From Flavobacteriales bacterium (GTDB lineage Bacteria > Bacteroidota > Bacteroidia > Flavobacteriales_F > PHOS-HE28), in assembly GCA_016710685.1 (NCBI GenBank), contig JADJVC010000002.1:701031-765030 (forward strand): DNA of 64,000 nt, in the 5' to 3' direction. This document shows, in pieces, positions 1,575 through 39,004 of this stretch. The notes under the pieces are model-generated. The model made no database searches, had not been told where the DNA came from, and was given only the letters and a program-made list of their open reading frames with translations. Position 1 is the stretch's first letter, and each line of letters opens with the position of its first letter. The position numbers were made by a program, and so were the translations under genes.

Positions 1575-3177
1575 TCACCACGTAGTTCGCGTCCATCGTT
1601 ACTTGCAGGCCCATGCTGTACGAATCCAGGATCTGTACATGTTGCACTTGGTCGGCCGTGTTGAAAGTTGCGGTGATGCGGATGTTTCCGCCGATGTAAA
1701 GCTGGTCCACTTGTTCCTGACTGAGTTCCACGTCCAAGCGGCTAGAGACTGGTGCGTTCACTAGGCCGTCCGCGCCCAACGTGGCGGAAGCCACGGTGCC
1801 CAGTGGACCAAGCATGGAAAGGACTTGCCCGTTGACATCCACAATATCAATTCCGATCGCAGCGGAAAACGGAAAGCCATTGTCCGCGAAAAGGTGCAGC
1901 ACGCCGCTTTGCAGCGCGTGGCCGTCGGTAGATCCGGGCAGGTCCACGGCCACGGTGCGTTGCAGGGTGAGGTTGGTGGCGATGAGACGGAGCGGTACGT
2001 CCACCTGCATTTCGGCGGTGAGCTTGCTTTCGTAGTAGAGGAAATCGTGCCCGTTGCTGATGTTTCCCAGCGGGTCGATGGTGATGCCCAAAGCGTATTC
2101 GATCTGGTCGGGCAAATTCTCCAGAAAAGCTTCGATGTTGCTGTTGCCTTGCGAAAGCGTGAACGTGTTCTCCGCCGATTGAAAGGATCCGCCAAGGTCC
2201 AACGCGCGGTCGATGTTGACCGGTCCCGTGGTGATCGCGTTCTGCAAGTCCACGCTGTTGCCCGTGCCGGAGTTGACGGAGCGGAGGTATTCAATGTTGG
2301 CACGCACGTCCACGCCGATGCCGTTTCGGATGCGCAGGGTGGCCGTGACCTCGTCCAGGTCCAGCGTGCCGCTGATGCCTTCGAAAAGATCAAGCGGGGT
2401 GGAGGCGGGGTCCACGGCGATGTCGCGCATTCCGAAGTAGCCGGTAGCGTATTGCGGCACGATACCGAAGTAGCTCACCGTGGCCAAAAGGCTGTCCTGC
2501 CCGGTGATGCTGATTTCGCCGTAGTCCGGCGAGCTGGCGTAGGCAAGGCTGGTGGCCAGGGTGTTCACATCGTCAAAAAATGGACCGCGCAGGTCGAGCG
2601 AATAGCCGCTAAGATCGCGGCTCGCGGAAGCTATGGAAGGGGCATCGGGGGTTCCCGGCTGAAGGGCCAATTGGATGTTGAACGGATTGCCGCCCGATGT
2701 GGCGCCCGGCAACGAGAAATCGCCGTTGATGTGGCCGGGCATGCTGTTGGCGATCCGCATTTCCACGGTGCCGGAGCGGATGTCCAGCCGGGTGAGCTGA
2801 AGGTCCTCGAGCTCGAAGCGGGTAACATCCTGGCTGGCCTCGAAGGTGGTACCGGGCGGGAAGTTCACCGGGCCGGGCACGGGCAGGGCATAGGCATATT
2901 GGAAACTGGTGTCCGGCGCAGTGAGGATCGTGTCCAGCGAAAGGGTGAACAGCTCCGCCGTGTACAGGATGCTCACGTTCCCAGCGTCATCCGTGGAAAG
3001 CAGGCTGTCAGGGACGATGTCGCCTATGGTTAGTATAGTGGTGGCTAATGGTGCCAGCAGGTCCAGGTCCCATTGCGCGGGCCGTGGTTCTTTGCGGCAT
3101 GCGGTAAGCAGCGCAGCCCATGCGACCATAACGGCAAGGCGGGAAACGGTTCGGCAGGGCCGGATCATGGCGGACAA
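1561..3177 (-). CDS. Hypothetical lipoprotein (signal peptide with Cys)
   Basis: 538 aa. N-terminal …ALLTACRKEP is lipobox-like. Co-directional and overlapping with the OMP gene downstream. Confidence 0.5.
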   Translation of the reverse strand: MSAMIRPCRTVSRLAVMVAWAALLTACRKEPRPAQWDLDLLAPLATTILTIGDIVPDSLLSTDDAGNVSILYTAELFTLSLDTILTAPDTSFQYAYALPVPGPVNFPPGTTFEASQDVTRFELEDLQLTRLDIRSGTVEMRIANSMPGHINGDFSLPGATSGGNPFNIQLALQPGTPDAPSIASASRDLSGYSLDLRGPFFDDVNTLATSLAYASSPDYGEISITGQDSLLATVSYFGIVPQYATGYFGMRDIAVDPASTPLDLFEGISGTLDLDEVTATLRIRNGIGVDVRANIEYLRSVNSGTGNSVDLQNAITTGPVNIDRALDLGGSFQSAENTFTLSQGNSNIEAFLENLPDQIEYALGITIDPLGNISNGHDFLYYESKLTAEMQVDVPLRLIATNLTLQRTVAVDLPGSTDGHALQSGVLHLFADNGFPFSAAIGIDIVDVNGQVLSMLGPLGTVASATLGADGLVNAPVSSRLDVELSQEQVDQLYIGGNIRITATFNTADQVQHVQILDSYSMGLQVTMDANYVVNGDQ

Positions 3178-3246
3178 GGTAGCTAATGCCCACGTTTCAG
3201 CCTTTCAATAAAGCTTCACGCAGTGCCAGTTGGTTGCAATAACCCC

Positions 3247-4230
3247 TCAAGGCAAAACCACCAACCGCCCACTATACTGCGGTGTATTTGTGGCAACGGT
3301 GGCTGAGGCTCTCGAAGCCACAGTAGCCACATAAGCCCCCGGTGCAACAGCCCCGGCCTGCAACTGGCATTGCGCACTACCCGCAGGCCAAGCCACCTGC
3401 AGCACTACCCGCCCACTGGCATCATGCAGTAAAAGCTGCGCGTTTTGCAAGGGTTGTTCTACGGAAAGCAACGCCTTGCCTGCAGTAGGGTTGGGGGCAA
3501 TGGTAAGCGGCTTGGGTTTTAATTGGTCTTTTTCTGAAATGCCCACATAACCTTCAGTATAGCTGAGGTCGTCTATATAGTATTCGCCCGCGAAACCATC
3601 ATAGCCCGAAGAAGCTATGAATCGCAGCGATCCAAGGACATTCGGTGTTGTGGTTCCGCTGGGCATTGTAGCAAAGGCCCAACTGCCTAAGAAGTGGTTG
3701 TTAACGGAAAGGGAAGCCAATTGGGCATCCAGGTCGAAGCTGAATACAACAGGGAACCATACGTTGTGCGGATAGCTTCCTGACAGCGATCCACCGTTCA
3801 CATGGCAGTCCACTGCCCCAATCGTTTCGGGCGTGAAATAGATAACTGCTGCCGGGTCCGCAGAAGGTCCTACACCGTGAAGAACTTCTATGAATGCGCC
3901 AAGTTCTCCCACCACGTACATGGAAAATTGAAGCACGAACGCACCCGTGGTGTGGTAGCCCAAGTTCAGCACGGCATCAACAGGACCGCCTTGATAACCA
4001 GGAATGGCTTGGATAAATGCCAAACTGTTCGGGCTGGTATGACTGTAGGCTGTGGTTACTGGCACGTCTTGTGTGCTACCCGGCTGTGTGCTCCACGGTT
4101 GCCACTGCCCCGGCACGTTCACGGCCATGCGGGTGCCCGTGCCGTAGCTGTCAAAATTATCCGAATAGATGGACTGAGCCTGTACGCTTGATAGTACAAG
4201 ACCGAGAACGAAAAACGGGACGCTCCTCAT
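3247..4230 (-). CDS. Secreted protein with T9SS C-terminal sorting domain (por_Cterm-like)
   Basis: 327 aa. Clear signal peptide MRSVPFFVLGLVLSSVQAQS. The C-terminal ~80 aa beta-rich tail is typical of T9SS cargo. Lower GC than flanking core genes. Confidence 0.6.
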   Translation of the reverse strand: MRSVPFFVLGLVLSSVQAQSIYSDNFDSYGTGTRMAVNVPGQWQPWSTQPGSTQDVPVTTAYSHTSPNSLAFIQAIPGYQGGPVDAVLNLGYHTTGAFVLQFSMYVVGELGAFIEVLHGVGPSADPAAVIYFTPETIGAVDCHVNGGSLSGSYPHNVWFPVVFSFDLDAQLASLSVNNHFLGSWAFATMPSGTTTPNVLGSLRFIASSGYDGFAGEYYIDDLSYTEGYVGISEKDQLKPKPLTIAPNPTAGKALLSVEQPLQNAQLLLHDASGRVVLQVAWPAGSAQCQLQAGAVAPGAYVATVASRASATVATNTPQYSGRLVVLP

Positions 4231-5960
4231 TGAACAACAATTCGGGTACCTGTTAAAATGCGCAGGTTGTCACTTAAATGGGCCGAGTACAAACCCGCTG
4301 GTTGATCCGTAAGGTCAACTGCGATGGATTGTTTGAGTTGTAACCCAAGATCACGATCCATTACCGACCTGCCAAGAGCATCGAAAACCTGTAACCGGAG
4401 ATTTCCTTCTAAGTGCAAATCGGCGGGCAGGTCCAAGTCCAAAGTGAATTGCCCGGTTGAAGGGTTAGGCCATGCCTTCAGTGCGTTGTCCAATCCATAC
4501 GCAATGGTTTCAATGCCTACGAATTGGCAACCAGGCACCAAACAACCCAAGCTGTCCAGTTTCAGCAACCACATATTTAGATTGCTGTATGGCGGAACGG
4601 TATCTTGGTTCCACGTTTCACCCGTCAACACCATACCGCCATCGCTGGTGGGTTCAATGTCCCAAGGAATTTCCGGGTAGAGATTGCTAAGGTTGCCAAA
4701 ATGTGCGTACTCCCTCCGCCATAGGGAATCACCGTATTGCGTCATGCGGTAAAGAACGGCCCGGTTGTAGTAGAGTTGCTGAATGCCGCCGCAGGCAATA
4801 AATGTGCTGTCCGTGTCTTGGTAGCCGTCCGTGAATGACCCGAAATTAAAACCGAACGGTTTGCTGCGTAACCCTTCAAAATCCCAATCCAAGCTGCCGT
4901 TCAAGGAATACATCGCCAAGTGCATGGTATTGATATCCGGAGTGCCGGGCAATGGGCTCGATTCATTCCAATTGCCCATACACAGTAGTTTGTCTCCAAA
5001 CATCCGTTTTACCCCGTACCAAAGGCCTCGGGGTTTATTCTGCTCCGCGATCCAACTTCCTCCGCCGTCGCTGCTTATTTTATGTAAGATTCCTTTATTT
5101 GACCCAAATCCAGCGATGTAAATATTTCCAACCTCGTCGATGTCCATCGATAGTGATTCCATATAGGGTGTTAAGCAATACATTTCAATGCTTCCAGTGC
5201 TGTCTGTTCGGAGGACGTAGCTATTGTTAGATAATAGAACACCTGATGCCTCCAAACCCGTGAAATAATACTTCGAATCACCATAACATGTTTTTCGGGC
5301 AGTTAAAAAAGTATCAGTCAGCAACGGTTTGGTCCAAAGTGTATCACCCAATGGGCTATATTTCACCAATGTTAGAGTATCAGGGACAGAGCTAACGTCG
5401 AAACTGCAAAGAGTGTTGCAATTGGGTCGCTAATTCCTTGAAAATCAAATCGTGGCCATGAAATGAACTGGTCAACTATAAAATTTCCTTGGGCGTCAAA
5501 TTTTGAAACAGTGCAATCTTGAAATGCGGTATCCGGTTGTGTTTGACTGCCAAAAACGATAAACCCCATAGGTGTTTCACGCACGGACTTCCCGACGGCA
5601 AAGCCACTGGACTGGTTGTAATGAACTATGTTAAATGTTTGGCCATGCACAAATAGCACGGCCAAAAGAGGCTGGCCGCTGTGGCCAGCTTTGGGATGAC
5701 TTTCAGTAATCTGATGGCACGCAGAATCGGCTTCTTCTTCAGGATGCCCGATGCATTGCTCACAGTTCGGGTTGCGTAGACCAGATTCGTTCTCATCTTT
5801 TGATTTCGCGTCGGCAAGCTACCACAACCCGTTTCCAATGGAAACCAACTTCGGCTTTCCATATACCGGTCCAAAACTAGCCCCACGGCAACACTTTGGT
5901 CAGTTCAGTTTGACAGGCCATGGCAGGGGAAGGGATTTGGAAGGCACACAACTCTAGGTT
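4227..5960 (-). pseudogene. Disrupted T9SS cargo gene. The C-terminal sorting domain is intact; the N-terminal part is split across at least three frames and has no signal peptide.
   Basis: Track ORFs 5626..5886, 5372..5665 and 4227..5369 abut in different frames. The 380 aa part ends …LSDNLRILTGTRIVVQ (T9SS CTD) but starts at a TTG with no signal peptide. The upstream frames carry contiguous sense-looking sequence. Confidence 0.45.
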
Positions 5961-6106
5961 GGTACACATCCCCACTCCGTGGCGGCGTGCTGCTCCTTGG
6001 CATCCTTACAATGCTCACCACTTTCTCCACAATTGCCGATCGCAATAGGCAACCACTCAAAATACTCACTTCGTTTCATGCGGAATGCGTGCGCTAATTT
6101 CGCGCC

Positions 6107-6574
6107 ATGGGCCGATCCGCCCAAACTGGCTTGTTGAACCGCGGAAAAATCATCCCTTGGCTACTGAGCGCGGTAGTGATGTACGGCATCTCGTATGCTT
6201 GGCACGGCCTGCTGTTGAACGACATTTCGGAGATGCGGATCGGGCTGGGCCTTTATTTGGCTCTTGCCGGGGTGGCGTACCTGTTGATCGGTCTCGGGCT
6301 CACGTTTTTGGTCCATACGGGCTTGCAACGCGGCTATATCTCCATGAAGACGGGATTCCCGTACAAGGGCATGGCCATAGGCGCGGTTTCGGGGTTAGCG
6401 GTTTACCTTTTGGTCTTCATATCGGGATTGTCCTTCGCCAGCCATGAAATTCATCACGTCTTTCTGGACGCAGTGTGGCAGGTGATCGAGCAAATGGTCG
6501 GTGGTTTGATGGTATGCCTCGGCATCATCTACGACATGCACCGCAGGTTTTTGGAGACGGAGCGGGCGAGTTGA
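6107..6574 (+). CDS. Hypothetical integral membrane protein (3-4 TM helices)
   Basis: 155 aa with hydrophobic segments (LLSAVVMYGISYAW, GLGLYLALAGVAYLLIGLGLTFLV, AIGAVSGLAVYLLVFISGL). ATG start at 6107. Confidence 0.5.
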   Translation: MGRSAQTGLLNRGKIIPWLLSAVVMYGISYAWHGLLLNDISEMRIGLGLYLALAGVAYLLIGLGLTFLVHTGLQRGYISMKTGFPYKGMAIGAVSGLAVYLLVFISGLSFASHEIHHVFLDAVWQVIEQMVGGLMVCLGIIYDMHRRFLETERAS

Positions 6575-6580
6575 TTTGCG

Positions 6581-6700
6581 AATTCCTAATTGCTGATCGC
6601 TGATTGCTAATTCCTAATTGCTGATTCCTAATTCCTAATTCCGGGATGCAGCTTCGGCAGCCGGGATCAGGATTTAGGAATTGGCAATCAACTCAGATAC
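6581..6700. repeat. Intergenic palindromic element with arms made of AATTCCT/TAATTGCTGAT units. Bidirectional terminator-like, between convergent genes.
   Basis: ttgcgaattcctaattgctgatcgctgattgctaattcctaattgctgattcctaattcctaattccggg …center… ccgggatcaggatttaggaattggcaatcaa. The arms are reverse complements. Confidence 0.55.
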
Positions 6701-7971
6701 TTCCCACCCCAAATTCGCTTGAGCAGCGCTTGGAATTCCTGCTCCTTCCGGTTGTCGCCCGGTTGGTAGAACGCGGTGCCGGTTATTTCCGCAGGCATGA
6801 ATTCCTGGTCGTTGAAATGCCCTGGACTGTCGTGGCTGTATTGGTAATTCTTACCGTGGCCCAGGTCCTTCATCAGCTTGGTGGGGGCGTTGCGCAGGTG
6901 GATGGGCACGGGCAGGTCGCCGGTTTGTTGCACGGCTGCTTGGGCTTTTCCAATAGCCACATAGCTCGCGTTGCTTTTCGGTGAACAGGCCAAGTAGATC
7001 GCGCATTGCGAAAGCACGATGCGGCTTTCGGGCCAGCCGATGAGCTGCACGGCCTGCATGCAGGTGGTGGCCATCAACAGCGCGTTGGGGTTGGCGTTGC
7101 CGATGTCCTCACTGGCCAGGATGAGCATTCTGCGGGCGATGAACTTCGGGTCCTCGCCGCCTTCCACCATGCGCGCTAGCCAGTACACGGCGGCGTTCGG
7201 GTCGCTGCCGCGCATGCTTTTGATGAATGCGCTCACGATGTCGTAGTGCTGTTCACCTTGCTTGTCGTAGCGGGCGGCGTTGGTCTGCACCACTTGGTGG
7301 ACCAGCGCGTCCGTAATGGCGATGGATCCGTCTTCCGCCGGGTCCGCGGCGCGCACGCACAGTTCAAATGTGTTCAGCAAGCGGCGTGCATCCCCGCCGC
7401 TGGCGCGCATCAGTGCGGCGGTTTCGCGCAGCGTGATGGATTTCGTCTTCAGGTCGGCATCTTCACGCATGGCGCGTTGCAACAGTCCCAACAGGTCTTC
7501 TTCCGCCAACGGCTTCAGTACGTACACCTGAGAGCGGGAAAGCAATGCGCCGATCACTTCGAACGACGGATTTTCCGTGGTGGCGCCGATGAGGGTGATC
7601 ACGCCTTTTTCCACAGCGCCGAGTAGGGAATCCTGTTGGGCTTTGCTGAAGCGGTGGATCTCGTCGATGAAGAGCACGGCGTTGCGTTGGAACAGCCCCG
7701 CGCCCTCGGCTTTGGCGATCACCTCGCGGATGTCCTTCACGCCGCTGCTGATGGCGCTCAGCGTGTGGAACGGCCTTCCCAGTTCCAATGCCATGAGCCG
7801 TGCCATCGTGGTCTTCCCCACGCCGGGCGGCCCCCACAGGATCATGCTGGGCAGCATTTTAGCGGCCAAGGCCTGATGAATAATGCCGCCCGGGCCCACC
7901 AGGTGCTCCTGGCCCACCACCTCACCGAGGTTTTTGGGCCGCATGCGTTCGGCTAGCGGAGCGGGGTCCAT
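6688..7971 (-). CDS. rarA: Replication-associated recombination protein A (AAA+ ATPase, MgsA/RarA)
   Basis: 427 aa. Walker A GPPGVGKTT, Walker B LFIDEIHRF. Collinear with RarA along its length. Confidence 0.9.
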   Translation of the reverse strand: MDPAPLAERMRPKNLGEVVGQEHLVGPGGIIHQALAAKMLPSMILWGPPGVGKTTMARLMALELGRPFHTLSAISSGVKDIREVIAKAEGAGLFQRNAVLFIDEIHRFSKAQQDSLLGAVEKGVITLIGATTENPSFEVIGALLSRSQVYVLKPLAEEDLLGLLQRAMREDADLKTKSITLRETAALMRASGGDARRLLNTFELCVRAADPAEDGSIAITDALVHQVVQTNAARYDKQGEQHYDIVSAFIKSMRGSDPNAAVYWLARMVEGGEDPKFIARRMLILASEDIGNANPNALLMATTCMQAVQLIGWPESRIVLSQCAIYLACSPKSNASYVAIGKAQAAVQQTGDLPVPIHLRNAPTKLMKDLGHGKNYQYSHDSPGHFNDQEFMPAEITGTAFYQPGDNRKEQEFQALLKRIWGGKYLS

Positions 7972-8048
7972 GGCGCGAAATTACCGCGCGGGGCCTTGGG
8001 TTCCGGCGTGACATGCGAAAAGTGTCCGTTCCACGTTGATGCGGGGAC

Positions 8049-8056
8049 TACATTTG
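8049..8056 (+). promoter_or_regulatory. Candidate Bacteroidetes sigma-A -7 element (TAnnTTTG) upstream of bamD
   Basis: tacatttg lies 10 nt upstream of the lipoprotein-type start at 8066. Matches the phylum -7 consensus TAnnTTTG. Confidence 0.35.
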
Positions 8057-8065
8057 CCGCCCCTT

Positions 8066-8875
8066 ATGTTCAAGAAGTCACTTCTTTTCCTGTTCATCGC
8101 CCTTGCCGCCAGCTCGTGCAGCGACTTCAACAAGGCGGTGAAGAGCACCGACAAGCAATACAAGTACGAGAAGGCGGTGGAGTATTTCAACAAGCCGGAT
8201 TACGACCGGGCCATGCCGTTGCTAGAGGAATTGCTGGGCCTTACCCGTGGCGACACCCTGTTCGAGCCGGTGAGCTACTACTACGCAAAAGGCTATTACG
8301 GCACGAAGGACTACATCCTTGGCAGCTACTACTTGGAAAACTTCGCGAAGACCTTCCCCAACAGCGTGCATGCCGAGGAATGCAGCTTTTTGGCGGCTTA
8401 CTGCCACTTCAAGGAAAGCCCGGAGTACGAGCTGGATCAGACCGACACGCAGATGGCCATCGACAAGATGGAGCTCTTCATGGTACGATTCCCGGAGACG
8501 AATTTGAAGGACAGCTGCAACAACCTCATTGACGGGCTGCGGCTGAAGCTGGAGAAGAAGGACTATGCCTCGGCCTACCAATACCTGCACACGCGGAATT
8601 ACCGGTCTGCAAGCCTTGCCTTCGCTGATTTTCTGAAGAAATGGCCCAATTCGGACCGGCGTGAGGATGCCTATTTCAACATTCTGGAAGCCGATCATGA
8701 CCTGGCGGTGAACAGCGTGGAAAGCAAGAAGGCGGAACGGGCCGAGGCCGGTGTCCGATCATTTAATACCTTCGCGGACGCTTTTCCGGAAAGTAAGCGC
8801 ATGGGCCAGGCCCGCGCCATGCTCCGCGACCTCAACGCACAGCTGCAACGAACACCCGATCCCAGTACCCCATGA
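8066..8875 (+). CDS. bamD: Outer membrane protein assembly factor BamD (TPR lipoprotein)
   Basis: Lipoprotein signal MFKKSLLFLFIALAASSC. TPR-like repeats. Followed by rpoZ-like and coaBC as in Bacteroidota. The track ORF starts 30 nt earlier at 8036. Confidence 0.8.
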   Translation: MFKKSLLFLFIALAASSCSDFNKAVKSTDKQYKYEKAVEYFNKPDYDRAMPLLEELLGLTRGDTLFEPVSYYYAKGYYGTKDYILGSYYLENFAKTFPNSVHAEECSFLAAYCHFKESPEYELDQTDTQMAIDKMELFMVRFPETNLKDSCNNLIDGLRLKLEKKDYASAYQYLHTRNYRSASLAFADFLKKWPNSDRREDAYFNILEADHDLAVNSVESKKAERAEAGVRSFNTFADAFPESKRMGQARAMLRDLNAQLQRTPDPSTP

Positions 8876-9207
8876 ACACCAAGTTCCAGACCGCCGCAAA
8901 GACCACCGTTACCCGTAACGTGGACCAGCTCGACAAGGAGACCGGCAACATCTACGAAAGCATTGCCATCCTCGGCAAACGCGCCAACCAAGTTGCCGTG
9001 GAGATCAAAGCGGAACTGCAGGAAAAGCTGGAGGAGTTCGCAGTGGTGGGGGAGAACATCGAAGAGGTGTATGAGAACCACGAGCAGATCCAGATGAGCA
9101 AGGAGTTCGAGCGTATGCCGAAGCCGGCCGCCATCGCCATTGAGGAAATGCTGGAGGACCGCATCGTTTTCCGCCGTCCCGGGGCCGAACAGCCAACGGA
9201 CATTTGA
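8872..9207 (+). CDS. rpoZ: DNA-directed RNA polymerase omega-like subunit (Bacteroidetes type)
   Basis: 111 aa. The motif NIYESIAILGKRANQ fits the omega signature (N-Y-l-a-RA-Q). 4-nt overlap with bamD; sits between bamD and coaBC. Confidence 0.7.
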   Translation: MNTKFQTAAKTTVTRNVDQLDKETGNIYESIAILGKRANQVAVEIKAELQEKLEEFAVVGENIEEVYENHEQIQMSKEFERMPKPAAIAIEEMLEDRIVFRRPGAEQPTDI

Positions 9208-10445
9208 TCGCGCCTACGGGCATGGGCGACGCACGCACGCTTCCCCGTAAAGTACTGCTGGGCGTAACCGGCGGCATTGCCGCATATAAAGTGCCTTTGC
9301 TGGTCCGTGCCTTGGTGAAGGCAGGAGCTGACGTGCAGGTGCTGATGACGCCCGCCGCGCACGATTTCGTTTCCCCTTTGGTGCTTTCAACACTTAGCGG
9401 GAAACCTGCGCTTACCGAATTGGTGGACAGGAATGACGGCACTGCCGTTTGGAATGACCACGTGCATTTGGCACGCTGGGCGGATGTGCTGCTCATCGCT
9501 CCGGCAACAGCGCATACGCTTGGTAAAATGGCCCACGGCCTGTGCGACAATTTGATGCTGGCCTGCTGGCTCAGCGCGGAATGCCCGGTATACATTGCTC
9601 CTGCGATGGACTTGGAGATGTACCGGGACCTGTCCGTAGCCGGCAACATCGCAGCGTTGAAAAAGCGCGGCGTACGCATGATCGGTCCGGAGACCGGGGA
9701 ACTCGCCAGCGGCCTAATCGGAGAAGGAAGGATGACCGAGCCGGATGACATCGTTGCCGCGCTGGTGGCGGGTTTGAAGAGCGGTTCGGCTTTGGCCGGG
9801 AAGCGGCTGTTGATCAATGCCGGCCCCACGCAGGAGGCAATTGACCCCGTTCGTTACATCGGCAACCGGAGCTCCGGCAAGATGGGCTTCGCGTTGGCGT
9901 TGGAAGCTGCAACACGCGGGGCCTTGGTGGAGTTGGTTGCGGGCCCAGTTACGTTGAAGGCCGAACATCCGGGGATCCATCGCACCGATGTGGTCTCCGC
10001 CGCGGAAATGGCGGAAGCCTGCAAAAAGCTTTTCACTGCCGCCGACCTGGCCATACTCAGCGCCGCCGTCGCGGATTGGCGCCCGGCCACCGTTGCGGGG
10101 AAGAAGCTGAAGAAGAAAGCAGGCATGGAAGCGCTGGCCTTGGAGGGCACCGAGGATATTCTGGCCTGGATGGGCGCCAACAAGCGCAAGGGCCAACGGT
10201 TGGTGGGATTCGCGCTGGAGACCAACGACGGTGAAGCGCATGCACGCGAAAAGCTCAAGCGTAAGAAGCTTGACCTCATCGTGTTGAACACATTGGGAGA
10301 ACCCGGGGTAGGCTTCGGGCATGACACCAACCAAGTAACCTTGATCGACAAAGGCACGGCGGCGCGACATTTGCCGTTGATGTCAAAGGCTGACGTGGCA
10401 CGTGCCGTGCTGGACCGTTGTGAAACCCTGTTATCGAATGCGTAA
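9204..10445 (+). CDS. coaBC: Bifunctional phosphopantothenoylcysteine decarboxylase / phosphopantothenate-cysteine ligase
   Basis: 413 aa. N-terminal flavoprotein domain (KVLLGVTGGIAAYK). C-terminal CoaB domain (LLINAGPTQEAIDPVRYIGNRSSGKMG). Confidence 0.92.
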   Translation: MIAPTGMGDARTLPRKVLLGVTGGIAAYKVPLLVRALVKAGADVQVLMTPAAHDFVSPLVLSTLSGKPALTELVDRNDGTAVWNDHVHLARWADVLLIAPATAHTLGKMAHGLCDNLMLACWLSAECPVYIAPAMDLEMYRDLSVAGNIAALKKRGVRMIGPETGELASGLIGEGRMTEPDDIVAALVAGLKSGSALAGKRLLINAGPTQEAIDPVRYIGNRSSGKMGFALALEAATRGALVELVAGPVTLKAEHPGIHRTDVVSAAEMAEACKKLFTAADLAILSAAVADWRPATVAGKKLKKKAGMEALALEGTEDILAWMGANKRKGQRLVGFALETNDGEAHAREKLKRKKLDLIVLNTLGEPGVGFGHDTNQVTLIDKGTAARHLPLMSKADVARAVLDRCETLLSNA

Positions 10446-11340
10446 AACGCTCGTTCTCCTTCTTGCGATCTTGGGCGGCGGCATGGCCGTGGCACAAGAG
10501 TTCAATTGCAAGGTTTCCGTATTGGCACCCCAGGCACAAAGCACGCCAAAGCGCGTGTTCGAGAGCATGGAAACGAGCATTTCGCAGATGATGAACACGC
10601 GGCGCTGGACCGCGTTGAACTTCAGCCCCCAAGAGCGAATCGACTGCAACATGCTGCTCACCATCAACGAGCAAAGTGGCACCACCACCTACAAGGGCAC
10701 GTTGCAAGTGATCTATTCCCGGCCCGTTTACGGCTCCGATTACATGAGCCCGGTAGTGGACATCCTGGACAACAACGTACAGTTCACCTTCTTGGAGAAC
10801 ACCCAGATCGAGTTTGCGCCGGAGCGATTCACCAATAACCTTTCATCTGTCATCGCCTTCTACGCTTATTACATCCTGGGCGTGGACGCGGACACGTATT
10901 CGCCCAACGGTGGCAGCGATTTCTATGCCCAGGCACAGACCGTGGTGACGAATGCACAGAACGCCAGCGAGTCGGGCTGGAAAGCCTTTGAGGATCAGAA
11001 GAACCGCTATTGGCTCATCGACAACCAGCAGCAGGCGGCGTTCCGTCCGCTGCGCGATTTTCTGTATGAATACCACCGCGACGGCTTCGACGCCATGGGA
11101 ACGGATGTTGCCGGCGGGCGCAAAGCATGCGCAGCGGCCATTGAGAAGTTAAAGGCTGTGCATCAGGCCAAGCCCAGCAGCTACAACCTCCAGGTGGTGT
11201 TCAACGCCAAGTACAATGAGCTGGTGCAGCTCTTCAAAAGCAGTGACCCGCAGGAACGTGCCAAGGTCTACAACACGTTGCAGATCATCGATCCCGGACA
11301 CATCAACCAGTATCTGGAGATGATGCGTGGCGGGCGGTAA
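10438..11340 (+). CDS. DUF4835-family secreted protein, the conserved partner downstream of coaBC
   Basis: The signal-peptide start MRKTLVLLLAILGGGMAVAQ overlaps the coaBC stop. Position and size are typical for the family. The track ORF starts at 10402. Confidence 0.6.
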   Translation: MRKTLVLLLAILGGGMAVAQEFNCKVSVLAPQAQSTPKRVFESMETSISQMMNTRRWTALNFSPQERIDCNMLLTINEQSGTTTYKGTLQVIYSRPVYGSDYMSPVVDILDNNVQFTFLENTQIEFAPERFTNNLSSVIAFYAYYILGVDADTYSPNGGSDFYAQAQTVVTNAQNASESGWKAFEDQKNRYWLIDNQQQAAFRPLRDFLYEYHRDGFDAMGTDVAGGRKACAAAIEKLKAVHQAKPSSYNLQVVFNAKYNELVQLFKSSDPQERAKVYNTLQIIDPGHINQYLEMMRGGR

Positions 11341-11508
11341 GACGTTCCTTTAGCCTGAGCGAAGGCCCATAAAGTCCGGCATTGCGATGGAACGCCCATG
11401 TTGCTGCGATCCCATTCGGGGGCGATAGTCACGCTGGTCGGGTGTTCTTCTCATTTCCGTGACCCCGTCAGGCGTCAAGTTCCCGGATCCAAAGGCTTGG
11501 CTTCGTCC

Positions 11509-13143
11509 TCAAGCCTTCTCGCTCACTTTGCGTTCCGCCTGTTTCAGCGCTTGCGCCGTGAAGGCGATGAACAGCGGGTGCGGCGTGGCCACTGTGCTGC
11601 GGTATTCCGGGTGGAACTGCACGCCCACGAACCACGGGTGATCCTTCAGTTCCACCACTTCCACCAACGTCGTCTGGGGGTTTATGCCGGTGGCCTCCAT
11701 GCCGCCCTTGGTGAACGCGGCGAGGTACTTGCCATTGAATTCGTAACGGTGCCGGTGGCGTTCGGAAATGGACGTTTTTCCATAGGCGATGGCCGCGTTC
11801 GACCCGGCTGTCAATTTGCAGGGATAAGCGCCTAACCGCATGGTGCCGCCCTTGCCGCTTTTGGCCTTTTGCTCCTCCATCATGTCGATCACCGGTGCGG
11901 GTGAATCGGCATCCATTTCCGTGCTGTTGGCACCTTCAAGCCCCAGCACGTTGCGCGCGAAATCGATTACGGCGCATTGCATACCGAGGCAGATGCCGAG
12001 GAACGGGATGGCGTTTTCACGGGCGAATTTGATGGCCTCGATCTTGCCCTCAATGCCGCGATGGCCGAAGCCCGGCGCGACTAAAATCCCGTTCAATCCA
12101 CCAAGCTGCTTTTGGATGTTCTTTGGTGTCAGCTTTTCGCTGTGGACCCACTTCACCTCCACGCGGGTTTCGTTGGCTGCACCGGCATGGTCGAGCGCTT
12201 CCTTGATGCTCTTGTAAGCATCGTGCAGCTCCACGTATTTGCCCACCAAACCTATGGAAACATGGTGCTTCGGTTCCTTGAAACGCCGAAGAAAGTCCTT
12301 CCAGTGCGTGAGGTCCGCTTCCGGAAAATTGGTGATGCCGAGCTTTTCCAACACTACCAGGTCCAGTTTTTCATCCTGCATCAGCAGGGGCACGTCGTAG
12401 ATCGTTTCCGCGTCCGCGCTCTCGATGACGGCGGTGGGCAGCACGTTGCAGAACAAGGCGATCTTCTCCTTCATGCCTTTTTGCATGGGGTGCTCCGTAC
12501 GGCACACCAAGATGTCCGGCTGCACGCCGAGGCTCAACAGCTCCTTCACGCTGTGTTGGGTGGGCTTGGTCTTCAGTTCGCCGCTCGTGCTGAGGTAGGG
12601 CAGGAGGGTGAGGTGGATGGAAAGCGCGTCGCGGCCTTTTTCCCACTTCAACTGGCGGATGGCCTCCACGTAGGGCAGGCTCTCAATGTCGCCCACGGTG
12701 CCGCCTACTTCAGTGATGACGAAATCGTAGATTCCCTTGCGGCCCAAGGCTTGGATGTTCCGCTTGATCTCGTCGGTGATGTGCGGCACCACCTGTACCG
12801 TCTTGCCTAGGTAATCACCTTGGCGCTCCTTATTGATCACGTTCTGGTAGATCCGCCCGGTGGTAACGTTGTTGGCCTGCGAGGTATGCACGTCCAGGAA
12901 ACGCTCATAGTGCCCCAGGTCCAAGTCCGTTTCAGCCCCGTCTTCCGTTACGTAGCACTCGCCGTGCTCGTATGGGTTGAGCGTTCCGGGGTCGATATTG
13001 ATGTACGGATCGAGCTTCTGGATGGTAACGGTGAAGCCCCGCGCCTGAAGAAGCTTGGCGAGCGAAGCACTCACAATGCCCTTGCCGAGGCTGGATGTAA
13101 CGCCCCCGGTAACAAAAATATACTTGGTGGATCCCGTCATCAC
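11509..13143 (-). CDS. pyrG: CTP synthase
   Basis: 544 aa. N-terminal [17 protein letters not shown]-terminal glutamine amidotransferase domain with GICLGMQ. Confidence 0.95.
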
Positions 13144-34253: not shown

Positions 34254-34691
34254 TCACAATATCCGCCGCAAGTAGTTCACCTGTCCCAAATGGTAGTTGA
34301 GGTGCCCGTGCAGATGCAGCAGAAAGTAGCCGGTAGTGGTTTCCTCCGGCAATACCCGGATCGGGAACGGCTGGGTCAGTCGACTTTTATCCAATGCCAC
34401 TAGGGTGTCATCCACGGCAGTAATGGTCTTTTTTAATTCCTCCAGAAGCTCCAGCTTAGGAATGCTCTTTGCGGCGAATTCACGCTCCCGATCCCGCGAA
34501 TAGGCACTGCCGCCGAGCACTGCTCCTATGAAGTGCCTCAGGTTGCCGCAGATGTGGAGAGCCAAATTGCCGGCGCTGTTTGTAACGCTGCCTGTGGTTC
34601 GCCAAATGTCCTCTTCCGCCTTGAAAGCATCGATCTCATTGCACAATTTGTGCAGGTCGCGGGCAAACAGACTACGGAGGTCAGTAAGCAT
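34254..34691 (-). CDS. DinB/DUF1572-like four-helix-bundle protein
   Basis: About 146 aa from MLTDLRSLFARDL. Spaced His residues (HICGNLRHF…HLHGHLNYHLGQ) typical of the DinB_2 metal-binding fold. The track ORF starts 41 codons earlier. Confidence 0.45.
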   Translation of the reverse strand: MLTDLRSLFARDLHKLCNEIDAFKAEEDIWRTTGSVTNSAGNLALHICGNLRHFIGAVLGGSAYSRDREREFAAKSIPKLELLEELKKTITAVDDTLVALDKSRLTQPFPIRVLPEETTTGYFLLHLHGHLNYHLGQVNYLRRIL

Positions 34692-34763
34692 GGGGGCGCT
34701 CTTTTCAACGCTGAAGGTAATCAAAAGCGGGAGCTTCGGGTCTGGGTCTGGTCCTGAAATGAA

Positions 34764-34801
34764 GAAAGCCCCAAAAGAGGGGCTTTCTTGCGGTCCGGAC
34801 G
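34764..34801. repeat. Terminator-like hairpin plus a 14-nt copy of the tRNA-Asp 3' end (att-like remnant A)
   Basis: aaagcccc-aaaaga-ggggcttt followed by tgcggtccggacgg, identical to the sequence at 38929..38942 (the tRNA-Asp acceptor end, complement strand). Confidence 0.5.
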
Positions 34802-34867
34802 GTCCTTCCCGCATCTACGCTTCACTTCGTGCGGGATAAACTTCTCGTCCCGTCGGGTTAAACGAAA

Positions 34868-34917
34868 AAAGCTCCCAAAAGAGGGAGCTTTTTGCGGTCG
34901 GACGGGACCTGAACCAT
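34868..34917. repeat. Terminator-like hairpin plus a 24-nt degenerate copy of the tRNA-Asp 3' end (att-like remnant B)
   Basis: aaaagctccc-aaaaga-gggagcttttt followed by tgcggtc-ggacgggacctgaacc. Compare the tRNA tgcggtccggacgggactcgaacc. Same orientation as the tRNA. Confidence 0.5.
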
Positions 34918-35920
34918 TCTTATCCCCCTTTGTCGAATTGTGGTTTGCCTACGCGCCAACGGTGGGATTCGCAGAAGGCTGAATAAAGACGAAACGGGGA
35001 AAGGAACGACAACGGACCGACAACCGACTATATTCCCCGTTATACCTAGCATCACACACGGCACGGATCGAACCTGCGGACCCCCCAGCCCGGGGGCCGG
35101 CTGGGGTGTCGTTGCGGGGGCGGACCGGTGGGGCGGCCCTGAACAACGGGGCGTTCCCCGCGTCCTGTCAACCAAAGTGAACGACTACCTGGAGTTGCAG
35201 GATGGTTCCAGTCTACAGCAGCCGTTCACGAAAACGGTTGCGGGGTCGACGGAACAAGGCAAGGCCGAGGTCATACGGCGGCCGGCGACAAATGCCTCGG
35301 GGGACGGCTCGGAACCCACCCGACGCGCTCGATAAGGCGATAACGGGACACACAAGGCAATCGTTTCGGGTCTACATCCGCTAAAGCGCGGCGCCGGGGC
35401 CGTGGGGGCCCGGGCGGGGCAGCGAGTTGGGGAGGGGGGACAAAATGCCCTCTAGTGAGGTTGGCCCTTGGCTATCGGAGGAATTAAACCACACACTATC
35501 GGTCTGCACATATTCTGCACTGTGCAACGGGGTGCCAATACAAACTGCAATCGAGCAGAATTTCAAGATCCAATGGATTCAAACGCTTGAGGATAGGCTA
35601 TAAACCGGAATCACCTAGTCAGCCGCTCAACCGCCTAGAGTGGAATTGCTCAACCGCCGTCTACGTTCATATCGTGAAGGAACTACTTAATAGAGGGTAC
35701 CTCTTTCTGCGGGAAGACGCCAGGATGCGGCATATCCGACTGTTCGCGGCTTCACAGTCGATTACCGTTTCCGGTCGAGACGGTACGGAATTATCCCCGG
35801 ACGAACGGCGATTCATGGTCGGCCTGGCAAGGCAAAGGCAAGACGACGTTACCAGGGGCAGAGGACATGAAAGCGTTTCAACGTTGGGTCCGATTACCTC
35901 GACCCTAGGCATGGGTTCGT

Positions 35921-36253
35921 TTGCGTCAGGTTCGCCAACAATGGCAACCCAAACGCAAATGGAACAGGTATTTTCTCACAGGTCCCGTCGCTGACCTACA
36001 GGGCTACATCGCCCAAACGATCCAACGTGAATTATCGGTCATCCTGAAGGCGGACCCCGCCCCGGATCCCGATGAACTGGTCACCCGCAAACAGGCCGCG
36101 CAATACTTGGGGTTGTCGTTGCCGACGTTGCATGAGTACACCATGCGCGGACTGGTGACGGCCTATCGGCTGGGGTCGAGGGTGCGCTATCGGAAAGGCG
36201 ATCTACTGAACTGCCTGCTGAAGGTTCAGACCGTGAAACACCGCGCCGCCTAA
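35921..36253 (+). CDS. Helix-turn-helix DNA-binding protein of the Bacteroidetes excisionase-like (HTH_17/Xis) type
   Basis: …IQRELSVILKADPAPDPDELVTRKQAAQYLGLSLPTLHEYTMRGLVTAYRLGSRVRYRKGDLLNCL matches the layout of CTn/mobile-element HTH proteins. Start uncertain (TTG in the track). Confidence 0.55.
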   Translation: MRQVRQQWQPKRKWNRYFLTGPVADLQGYIAQTIQRELSVILKADPAPDPDELVTRKQAAQYLGLSLPTLHEYTMRGLVTAYRLGSRVRYRKGDLLNCLLKVQTVKHRAA

Positions 36254-36615
36254 TGGATACCCCTGCATTCGCCAAACACCACCGCATCACCTTCGACCTC
36301 GACATTGATTCGGGCTGGTACATCCGCAGACCCGCCCCGATCCACTTCGCCAAGTTGCCGGGGAAACTGAAGGTCGAGCAGACACAGATCGAACGGTTCA
36401 GGAACCAAGGGGCTGAAACGATCATCACCGGACCAATGAGGGACAAACGGCGCACGTTCTATACTGGTCTGCGACAACTACCTGTCGAGGGTTGCTATGT
36501 GGGCAACGACTACGAACAGCGCAACGGGAAGGTCCTCGTTGGTCCTGTTCCAGTTCAGCGCGGATCATTCGAACTGACCTTTCTATTTCAACGGGTACTA
36601 CAAGGCGGCATCTGA
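36253..36615 (+). CDS. Hypothetical protein in the island
   Basis: 120 aa ORF with an ATG start directly after the HTH gene. No recognisable family. Confidence 0.3.
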   Translation: MDTPAFAKHHRITFDLDIDSGWYIRRPAPIHFAKLPGKLKVEQTQIERFRNQGAETIITGPMRDKRRTFYTGLRQLPVEGCYVGNDYEQRNGKVLVGPVPVQRGSFELTFLFQRVLQGGI

Positions 36616-36957
36616 AGACCGCAGCCGTTACCGTGTTATTCTTTCAGGACCAGCACCAGGGGCGCGTGACGGCCCCTGCCCTGTTATCGCCTTTACACAG
36701 GCATCACCCTGCAATGACGACTACGCGAGTTACTACACCTGCGAGGTAGGGCGCGCCTTTGGATCACCCTTACTGTCGTTCAGCGACCAGTGAATGAGGA
36801 TACCGGGGAACTGTTGGGACCGATGCACGATGCGCGGAATATGGCCGCATGACCTTACCATTACCCCAGCGGACGTACCACGATGCGGATCGTTCCACAA
36901 ACCGCGCACGGGGCAACTGGGACGAATACACGTTCACGCAATTCCTGGAGACTGTAG

Positions 36958-37827
36958 ATGAACTATGCAGAACCTTCGACCTCGACCCCCATACACGATA
37001 AAGGATGCCAGTACGGCCTACCCTTCGACCTGCTGCGGGATGAAGTGAAGTTCACCAAGGCCGCGCCTTTGCATCGCATGGGAATCTATACGTTGAACGA
37101 CCTACTGAACCCCGGCGCATGGAGACAACTACAGGCCCGCATCTTGGGCATATACGATGAACTGTTCATCCTCGAACCGTCGATCACCAAGGCCCCATTG
37201 ACACCTTCGCAGCGCACGTTCACCACCGTAGCCACCGCACCGGGTTACTGGCAAGGGCTGACCAAGGGACAACGATACAAGGCCCGCGCGCGCTATGCCG
37301 ACATCGTGGAACAGTTCGCCAGTAGCAACCTGAAGGGCGAACTACGCGAGGAGCTGGTCGGCAAGTTGAACGACCTGCTGAACGATGCCGAAACCACTGT
37401 CGAAAAGGGTGACCCTTTCACCAATATCCTAGGGCCTACGATCCAAGGTAAAGGGGGACCCTTTCACGGTTCAGTTAATGTGGGAACTGGTCACCCTACG
37501 GACACCGGGAACGATGGACCGGTCACCGCCCCTTGTACTGTTAAAGAAACAAGGGATAACAAAGGCGAAACAAAGGTGGAGGCCCGGTTTTGCCTGACCT
37601 GCGGTCATGACATTAGCGACCAGCGGAAAGGATCACGCTACTGTTCAGAGAGCCGGTACGGCAAGGCCGCTAAACAGTGCCGGAACGCAGGTAGCAACCC
37701 TCGGAACAATCGTCTGCGATCCTTGGAACTGATCGAGCGTGACCCGCTACTGTTCGACCATCGGCCATACATCGCCGCGTACGTCGCTGAATCACCACGC
37801 ATCACAATCTATAATAGAACAAAGTAG
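36958..37827 (+). CDS. Hypothetical protein with C-terminal C4 zinc ribbon
   Basis: 289 aa. C-terminal CLTCGHDISDQRKGSRYCSESRYGKAAKQCRN (CxxC…C…C with an R/K-rich spacer) resembles nucleic-acid-binding Zn ribbons of phage/plasmid proteins. Confidence 0.4.
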   Translation: MNYAEPSTSTPIHDKGCQYGLPFDLLRDEVKFTKAAPLHRMGIYTLNDLLNPGAWRQLQARILGIYDELFILEPSITKAPLTPSQRTFTTVATAPGYWQGLTKGQRYKARARYADIVEQFASSNLKGELREELVGKLNDLLNDAETTVEKGDPFTNILGPTIQGKGGPFHGSVNVGTGHPTDTGNDGPVTAPCTVKETRDNKGETKVEARFCLTCGHDISDQRKGSRYCSESRYGKAAKQCRNAGSNPRNNRLRSLELIERDPLLFDHRPYIAAYVAESPRITIYNRTK

Positions 37828-37830
37828 ACC

Positions 37831-38196
37831 ATGGCACGAGGAAGAAAAACAGGCGGTCGGCAATTTGGCACCCCGAACAAGGCCACGTCTACACTAACGG
37901 AACAGGTCGAACAGGCCACAGGCGGTGAACCTATCCCTGTGCTATTGGCACGCATCGGGGCGAAGGCCATGAAGGATCGGGATTACCAGACCGCTATCAA
38001 CGCATTGAGCAAGGCCGCTGCATACGTCTATCCACGGCTGCAATCAATTACCACCCCGGATACTCCCAACGTTCTACTCCCGCACTTAGTGGTGAATGCG
38101 GACGGGATGGCGAAGGTTCCCGAAAATTGGCCGGGACCAGTTATTCGGTTCGCAATGCGTAGCCCGCAGGATCCGCCGTCTACTATACTGGTTTGA
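37831..38196 (+). CDS. Hypothetical protein in the island
   Basis: 121 aa, begins 4 nt after the preceding gene. No recognisable family. Confidence 0.3.
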   Translation: MARGRKTGGRQFGTPNKATSTLTEQVEQATGGEPIPVLLARIGAKAMKDRDYQTAINALSKAAAYVYPRLQSITTPDTPNVLLPHLVVNADGMAKVPENWPGPVIRFAMRSPQDPPSTILV

Positions 38197-38930
38197 AGTA
38201 GGATTCACCCGGCCCGTATCCAGACCGTATTTATCGGCTATTAACGGGACGACTATGCGATCACGGCCCCGGAACATGCAGAGGTTTCCCGTCACATCGC
38301 GCACGTAAGGCGCACGCACACGCAAGGCCATGCAGACGGGGTTTCCGAAACCATCGCGCGCGTAACGGGACCCCGTGTTCACCTTGTTTCCGCCTTGTTA
38401 CACCGTGTTTTCACCGTTATAACAGCGGAATAACAGCGGTGAAAACAGACGAACTACTGCGCCAGAGAAAGGCCCTGTTTGCGTTTAGCGTCCTTTTTCC
38501 TTGCGCCAACGTTCAGGGGGATTGTAACCGCTGCAACGGTCCCGCAAAAGATCAACACAGGCGCGGCCAGTTCATTCTGGTTCCAGCTCGTGGAGGTCAT
38601 GAAATTCCCCGCGATCAACATCCCGAATGTCATGATTCAGCAGGTGCAACTAAGTCGTCTGGTTGAACGCCTTGATCTCATTCGGATGATACACATCTGG
38701 GGCCGGTGGAAGATCTTGCCATGCCCTCTAATGCACACATCAACAATGCTATGACTAGGAATCTCTGGGACGAAACTATGCATCGCTGTGTTCCCATCTT
38801 GTATTGTGTCAAATCTCAATAACAGGCGAGGAACAGGTGGCAATCGCCACAAACCGACAACCCAGTGACAACGCTACAACGAGGATCGCCGGAACCCTTT
38901 GCTATTGCTAGGATTGCGGCGAAACTTATG

Positions 38931-39004
38931 CGGTCCGGACGGGACTCGAACCCGCGACCTCCGCCGTGACAGGGCGGCATTCTAACCAGCTGAACTACCG
39001 AACC
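38931..39004 (-). tRNA. tRNA-Asp (anticodon GTC)
   Basis: Complement reads GGTTCGGTAGTTCAGCTGGTTAGAATGCCGCCCTGTCACGGCGGAGGTCGCGGGTTCGAGTCCCGTCCGGACCG. D-loop AGCTGGTTAGA. Anticodon loop CTGTCAC. T-loop GGTTCGAGTCC. 7-bp acceptor stem. Confidence 0.85.

Follow-up and report, generated by a model that had tools for sequence, protein, structure and literature searches.

The DNA analysed here is a stretch of 64,000 nt from a contig of a Flavobacteriales bacterium (JADJVC010000002.1), and this whole stretch is referred to below as the window. Between a DinB-family gene and an excisionase-like gene of the HTH_17 family lies a segment (34918–35586) that an earlier note, made from the sequence alone, had singled out as poor in open reading frames (ORFs), very GC-rich and highly structured. 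Three readings were offered for it: a structured non-coding RNA (ncRNA), a degraded gene, or stacked remnants of attachment (att) sites. The segment lies at the inner edge of a 4.0-kb element (34893–38945; 4,036 bp in the window) integrated in the 3′ end of a tRNA-Asp gene. We conclude, with a probability of roughly 0.9, that it is what remains, without function, of two genes at the element's distal end, a tyrosine-recombinase integrase gene and the variable ORF beside it (p227/p193); of the three readings it is the degraded gene that has held up, and the other two have not.

Comparison contigs from other assemblies carry the labels L001–L024. When the largest ORF of the element (289 amino acids, aa) was used as a homology query, relatives of ∼430 aa were found, and the contigs of these relatives share a neighbourhood, with mnmA, MORN_2 and DinB on one side and tRNA-Asp and DUF58 on the other. 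In L001 and L012–L019 the order is DinB, int429, p193/p227, HTH_17, p143, p434 and p121, followed by tRNA-Asp and DUF58. At least nine other assemblies hold an intact element of 5.5 kb at the identical site (5,534 bp in L001, at 6883–12433; 5,500 bp in L012, at 2917–8433), and intact forms of the proteins were found on 12–19 contigs from NCBI, JGI, Logan and ENA. The intact integrase, of 429 aa, has Arm-DNA-bind_5 (aa 11–84), Phage_int_SAM_5 (aa 133–206) and Phage_integrase domains.

The segment is collinear with these intact copies. Window 34800–35086 aligns to L001 6790–7114, a stretch that takes in the att core, the promoter region and integrase codons 1–11, and 35148–35385 aligns to L001 8005–8297, the 3′ part of the integrase gene (78.5% identity by blastn, with 8 mismatches and 55 gap columns, all of the latter in the window). 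As expected for a remnant by descent, the pieces at 35058–35086 and 35148–35385 are collinear with L001 7081–7114 and 8005–8297, and their flanks are alike. Further inward, 35535–36994 aligns contiguously to L012 4760–6296, from the 3′ half of p227 through the HTH gene and p143 into p434. With tblastn, integrase aa 305–381 matched 35123–35317 in frame 1 and aa 366–407 matched 35268–35390 in frame 2, while p227 aa 81–126 and 125–205 matched 35463–35600 and 35590–35814, again in two frames. A translated match to a frameshifted protein gene is what the earlier note itself had proposed as telling against an ncRNA, and integrase and p227 both give one, in shifted frames. Its description of the segment as ORF-poor was correct: the ORFs inside it, including those of 131 and 105 aa, match no Pfam or PHROG family, and the exact sequences of these two are absent from a collection of 15 billion proteins.

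Strings from the two GC-rich fillers (Table 1) have no match elsewhere in the window and none in viral_contigs, and tblastx to the distant relatives L002–L005 returned only low-complexity GC matches. Tests of the longest common subsequence (LCS), made to see if the unaligned pieces could be derived from the intact genes as plain subsequences, were uninformative for the pieces 35087–35147 and 35386–35534; the piece 35613–35912 gave a mild signal, which was later explained by a different allele that aligns to L012. The last two pieces, when aligned globally to L001, gave no meaningful alignment.

Since the start codon is lost, codons 12 to ∼304 are gone and the remainder is frameshifted, the segment encodes nothing, and to judge from its sequence it cannot encode a recombinase. 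There is no uninterrupted ORF with a start, and the matches in frames 1 and 2 contain stops. The missing 890 nt took with them the arm-binding and SAM-like domains and the catalytic domain's first half, so that of the R..HxxR..Y set only what corresponds to ∼aa 305–407 remains; there, the 'TTHTARRSF' (HxxR) box is mostly deleted, and the catalytic Tyr codon of 'SFRVYIR' survives in another frame. Known integrases of tRNA-integrated elements (PF00589 with Phage_int_SAM_5 and Arm-DNA-bind_5) are likewise the first gene inside the distal att site and are transcribed inward, and integration into a tRNA 3′ end, here with a 17-nt core repeat, is a further shared trait. Compared with them, the segment is without a start codon, ∼890 nt, the arm- and core-binding domains, catalytic Arg I and HxxR, and it carries multiple frameshifts.

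Two observations concern the sequences that border the integrase gene. Upstream of its start are CCGACAAC-type repeats (window 35006–35030, L012 3075–3100, L002 ∼5400–5440), which are kept in L012 and in the distant relative L002, and which are candidate arm-type or regulatory sites. Downstream, the 3′ half of the ORF that follows the integrase gene, together with the spacer that precedes HTH, forms a variable cassette (window 35463–35900; L012 4700–5300; L001 8650–9200) with at least three alleles, namely p193, p227 and the window's own version; the remaining element is invariant.

Table 1. Features of the element and its borders, in window coordinates.
Feature	Position	Strand	Basis or remark
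DinB-family gene	34254–34814	−	Pfam DUF1572/DinB_2
Older terminator-hairpin duplicate with tRNA-Asp 3′ fragment (fossil att)	34757–34802	.	Direct repeats D1/D2
Terminator-like hairpin AAAAAAGCTCCC..GGGAGCTTTTT	34863–34896	.	Inverted repeat; directly after tRNA-Asp in empty site L010
Distal att core TGCGGTC-GGACGGGAC, copy of tRNA-Asp 3′ end	34893–34908	+	
Integrase upstream region with CCGACAAC repeats, 14 small deletions	34909–35057	+	Aligned to L001 6900–7080
Integrase codons 1–11, start ATG changed to ACG (35058–35060), 5-nt deletion	35058–35086	+	
GC-rich filler, 61 nt, ∼85% GC, with 8-bp hairpin	35087–35147	+	Replaces 890 nt of integrase (L012 3149–4038)
Integrase 3′ part, ∼aa 305–407, frameshifted	35148–35385	+	blastn; tblastn in two frames
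Second GC-rich filler, ∼77 nt, 83% GC	35386–35462	+	Opens the stretch that stands in place of integrase end and first ∼80 p227 codons
Variable gene p227/p193 remnant, aa 81–205, third allele, frameshift near 35586–35600	35463–35814	+	tblastn; blastn from L012 4760 onward
HTH_17 excisionase-like gene, 5′ end eroded	35921–36253	+	Pfam HTH_17, E = 4.8e-8; 98.9% identical to L001 HTH
p143 gene, frameshifted after codon ∼102	36253–36660	+	Intact 143-aa forms exist
p434 gene, broken by microdeletions and a 176-nt deletion at 36994/36995	36769–37827	+	
p121 gene, intact	37831–38196	+	100% identical to L001
Proximal att core TGCGGTCCGGACGGGAC, 17 nt, within tRNA-Asp 3′ end	38929–38945	+	
tRNA-Asp (GTC), integration target	38930–39004	−	ARAGORN; Rfam tRNA model 38931–39004, 66.6 bits

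The borders of the element are fixed by the 17-nt core together with four independent empty-site contigs (L010, L020, L023 and L024), in which the tRNA gene is joined straight to the DinB side via a single core. What is expected of an att site, sequence identity with the 3′ end of the tRNA and a recombination core at the border, is found in the distal core, which lies just outside the segment; the earlier note was thus right to place the segment at the inner edge of att-like repeats. This distal core is one C short relative to every other assembly, and L007–L010 each align with one gap there. A second, older copy of the terminator hairpin with a tRNA 3′ fragment is located 104 nt upstream of the true core and is present in all strains, L001 and the empty-site contig L010 included. 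Because empty sites have it too, we regard it as an older chromosomal fossil and not as part of the element; it is probably the trace of an earlier integration. When the whole element was compared with a phage database by blastn, the tRNA was its sole match.

A genuine fossil att with its terminator, in addition to the real core, might encourage the view that the segment consists of stacked att remnants or of further tRNA-derived fragments left by repeated integrations, the more so as a string within it, GGATCGAACCTGCGGACC (35065–35082), resembles the T-arm of tRNA-Asp on the complementary strand. The earlier note had taken this string for another tRNA fragment. It is, however, integrase codons 3–10 minus 5 nt. 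The equivalent in the intact copies, ATGGCACGGATCAACTTGAACCTGCGGACC, is the start of the integrase ORF (ATG-GCA-CGG-ATC-AAC-TTG-AAC-CTG-CGG-ACC), from which the window has lost AACTT, and the intact form is kept even in the distant L002. Neither ARAGORN nor the Rfam tRNA model detected a tRNA-like unit at the motif, and no copy of the att core lies within 34918–35586. We therefore consider an origin of the segment from repeated integrations extremely improbable.

The lead idea of the earlier note was a structured ncRNA carried by the element. The stems that it named do exist (CCCCAGCC...GGCTGGGG at 35083–35106, and ACGGGGA/TCCCCGT near 34994/35035); they are perfect locally, and the folding of 34985–35050 reached z = −2.04. 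Stability, nevertheless, is not above that given by composition. Against dinucleotide shuffles, the minimum free energy of the whole segment had z-values of −1.46 (+ strand) and −0.03 (− strand), and local values were +0.42 and −0.19 for the region of the GC hairpin and −0.78 and −1.68 for 35380–35450. The description 'very GC-rich' applies only to two patches of 83–85% GC (35080–35139 and 35380–35439), the segment as a whole having 59.9% against 56.4% in the window. The most conspicuous hairpins lie in the GC-rich fillers, and the 3′ arm of the ACGGGGA/TCCCCGT stem owes its existence to a deletion of 6 nt; intact homologues do not have it.

A scan with Rfam/Infernal, which the earlier note had recommended, gave no family match in the segment: at the gathering score the window yields tRNA-Asp alone, which is also the only tRNA that ARAGORN finds. 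A relaxed scan of 34600–36000 (E ≤ 10) returned sub-threshold matches at chance level, none of which reaches half of the gathering score of its family. Most of these are to the terminator hairpins at 34763–34789 and 34863–34896. The only one inside the segment, to radC, scores 15.2 bits where the gathering score is 40; the others that touch the first few bases of the segment are matches to the hairpin at 34863–34896. A scan for sigma-70 promoters and terminators gave one weak promoter-like site, not above chance expectation. In intact elements the homologous sequence is protein-coding and is without the stems, which come from deletions or from filler not found in homologues. For a novel ncRNA, too, the folding shows no excess over composition, and a structured ncRNA at this position seems to us scarcely credible. 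The reported stems and the 'T-arm' are by-products of deletions and of GC-rich filler.

The damage itself has a distinctive pattern. Relative to intact copies, the window's element has 66 small deletions (41 of a single base), no insertions and 28 substitutions, and A is the most frequent among the lost bases (52 A, 39 C, 24 T and 21 G). All events (34899–38880) are bounded by the att cores and fall in patches at 34899–35990, 36529–36915 and 38401–38880; the core of the element (36000–36500 and 37000–38400) shows essentially no differences. The 6.9 kb of chromosome on the left flank has 1–15% substitutions per bin and no indel at all; on the right flank indels number only a handful. Within the cassette, 35540–35683 carries ∼15% substitutions and few gaps. 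The truncated products, of 289, 120 and 110 aa, occur in one record only, an NCBI metagenome-assembled genome (MAG) named Flavobacteriales bacterium (IPL86_05425–05430, MBK8581285–87; contig of 1,154,578 bp), and an exact query of the contig index for the 289-aa product returned no record. A 42-mer from the element core was found 0 times in genome_contigs and once in metagenome_contigs, in the intact copy on L006.

The other copies are uniform. The integrase genes of L001 and L012 differ at 0 of 1290 nt, and eight further independent assemblies, which come from several samples, are essentially free of differences from L012 except in the variable cassette. At the level of sequence, the near-identity of these nine copies suggests a recently spreading, active element.

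In communities the tRNA-Asp locus takes several forms: occupied, empty, occupied by another element, or present as a free circle. Single JGI samples contain both occupied and empty sites (3300059061, with L013 and L020; 3300053041, with L019 and L023). Short-read contigs of the window's own strain (L007 and L021, with flanks 99.2–99.8% identical) stop at or inside the att region, and L009 (1–1260), also of this strain, with a flank 99.8% identical, has another element, which also bears an integrase, at the same core. On the Logan contig L002 (1–5740) there is a related element, with a p434 that is 69% identical, and the contig ends overlap by 22 nt. Because L002 closes to a circle of 5,718 bp, with an integrase ORF of 427 aa running across the junction, we take it to be a free circle that has been excised or is replicating.

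Against this background, we think it probable, if some way from assured, that the damage in the window arose in long-read metagenome assembly, as an artefact of consensus building or polishing at a heterogeneous locus. A consensus drawn from a mixture of reads, of the occupied, empty, variant and circular forms, would plausibly be deletion-rich, and would be so only within the element; the true cellular sequence would then be the intact element, the empty site, or both. A MAG contig longer than 1 Mb suggests long reads, and a published pipeline for activated-sludge MAGs put Nanopore reads through CANU and then applied Racon with --include-unpolished (PMC8012365). The points that we count in favour of an artefact are the restriction of deletions to the element, the near-absence of indels from the flanks, the identity of the other copies, the occurrence of the truncations in a single MAG, the coexistence of occupied and empty sites in single samples and the break of short-read contigs of this strain at the att core. 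A ratio of 66:0:28 beside difference-free stretches, with other copies identical, is not the pattern of neutral decay. Long-read consensus erosion at heterogeneous loci shares with the window deletion-only errors, confinement to a polymorphic element, perfect flanks and occurrence in a single assembly.

Some observations weigh against an artefact. The GC-rich fillers are explained neither by it nor by real decay, and such fillers of 60–77 nt set the window apart from textbook Nanopore errors. Unlike classic errors of that kind, the deletions are not obviously linked to homopolymers and have no clear homopolymer context. The link of the MBK8.../IPL.. (IPL86_) records to the Nanopore project is a presumed one. 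Furthermore, bacterial pseudogenes have a deletion bias, so that some real decay is conceivable.

It is possible, although we hold it only tentatively, that the assembly is correct and that the integrase was lost in vivo by genuine deletions, leaving a grounded, pseudogenised remnant. In addition to the deletion bias just mentioned, the remaining contig appears accurate, as judged from the indel-free left flank, and the ordinary substitutions and few gaps of 35540–35683 indicate that the window's element is a distinct allele. Real decay is difficult to reconcile, however, with 2.2 kb of element core without any difference next to patches with a 66:0:28 ratio, and the identity of the other copies across samples leaves too little time for decay on this scale. 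The eroded products are, moreover, confined to one assembly, and an exact 52-mer from the eroded part was found 0 times in genome_contigs and metagenome_contigs.

A variant of real damage would attribute its deletion-only, A-biased and patchy character to a mutational process specific to the element or to a microdeletion mechanism of the host. The former might be, for example, error-prone repair of single-stranded rolling-circle intermediates; the latter would disable the integrated replicon by microdeletions and would leave GC-rich filler at the large breakpoints. We regard either process as very unlikely, and we continue to favour an assembly artefact as the source of the damage.

Among the other genes of the element is p434. 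The predicted fold of its product is like that of rolling-circle Rep proteins and agrees with the Rep_trans fold; no Pfam, NCBIfam or PDB entry, Rep_trans included, was matched by sequence. An invariant K156-Y158-K160 motif was noted. We liken the surrounding element to small integrative elements with an initiator/relaxase of the Rep_trans type (pT181 RepC/RepD; Tn916 Orf20-type); in comparison with these, the window's element has no conjugation or capsid genes, and its copy of p434 is broken. The 5.5-kb integrative element is a known kind of element. A direct repeat, GGTTTCC..ATCGCGC.CGTAA, occurs at 38283–38308 and 38340–38365 in an ORF-poor stretch of 730 nt between p121 and tRNA-Asp, a pair that may serve the Rep-like protein as origin or iteron region.

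Whether the damage is an artefact or reflects decay, the segment is an ordinary gene remnant, of an already-known kind. Its history calls for caution with ORF-poor stretches rich in GC hairpins at the edges of mobile elements in long-read MAGs: these can be eroded ordinary genes, and candidate ncRNAs should not be sought in them. Such cases are resolved fast once an intact orthologous locus is set beside them. If the damage is real, the window holds a grounded element that would no longer be able to excise by itself. The 5.5-kb element is of mild value to catalogues of mobile elements, with its Rep-like protein, its identity across many samples and its occurrence in integrated, empty-site and circular forms.
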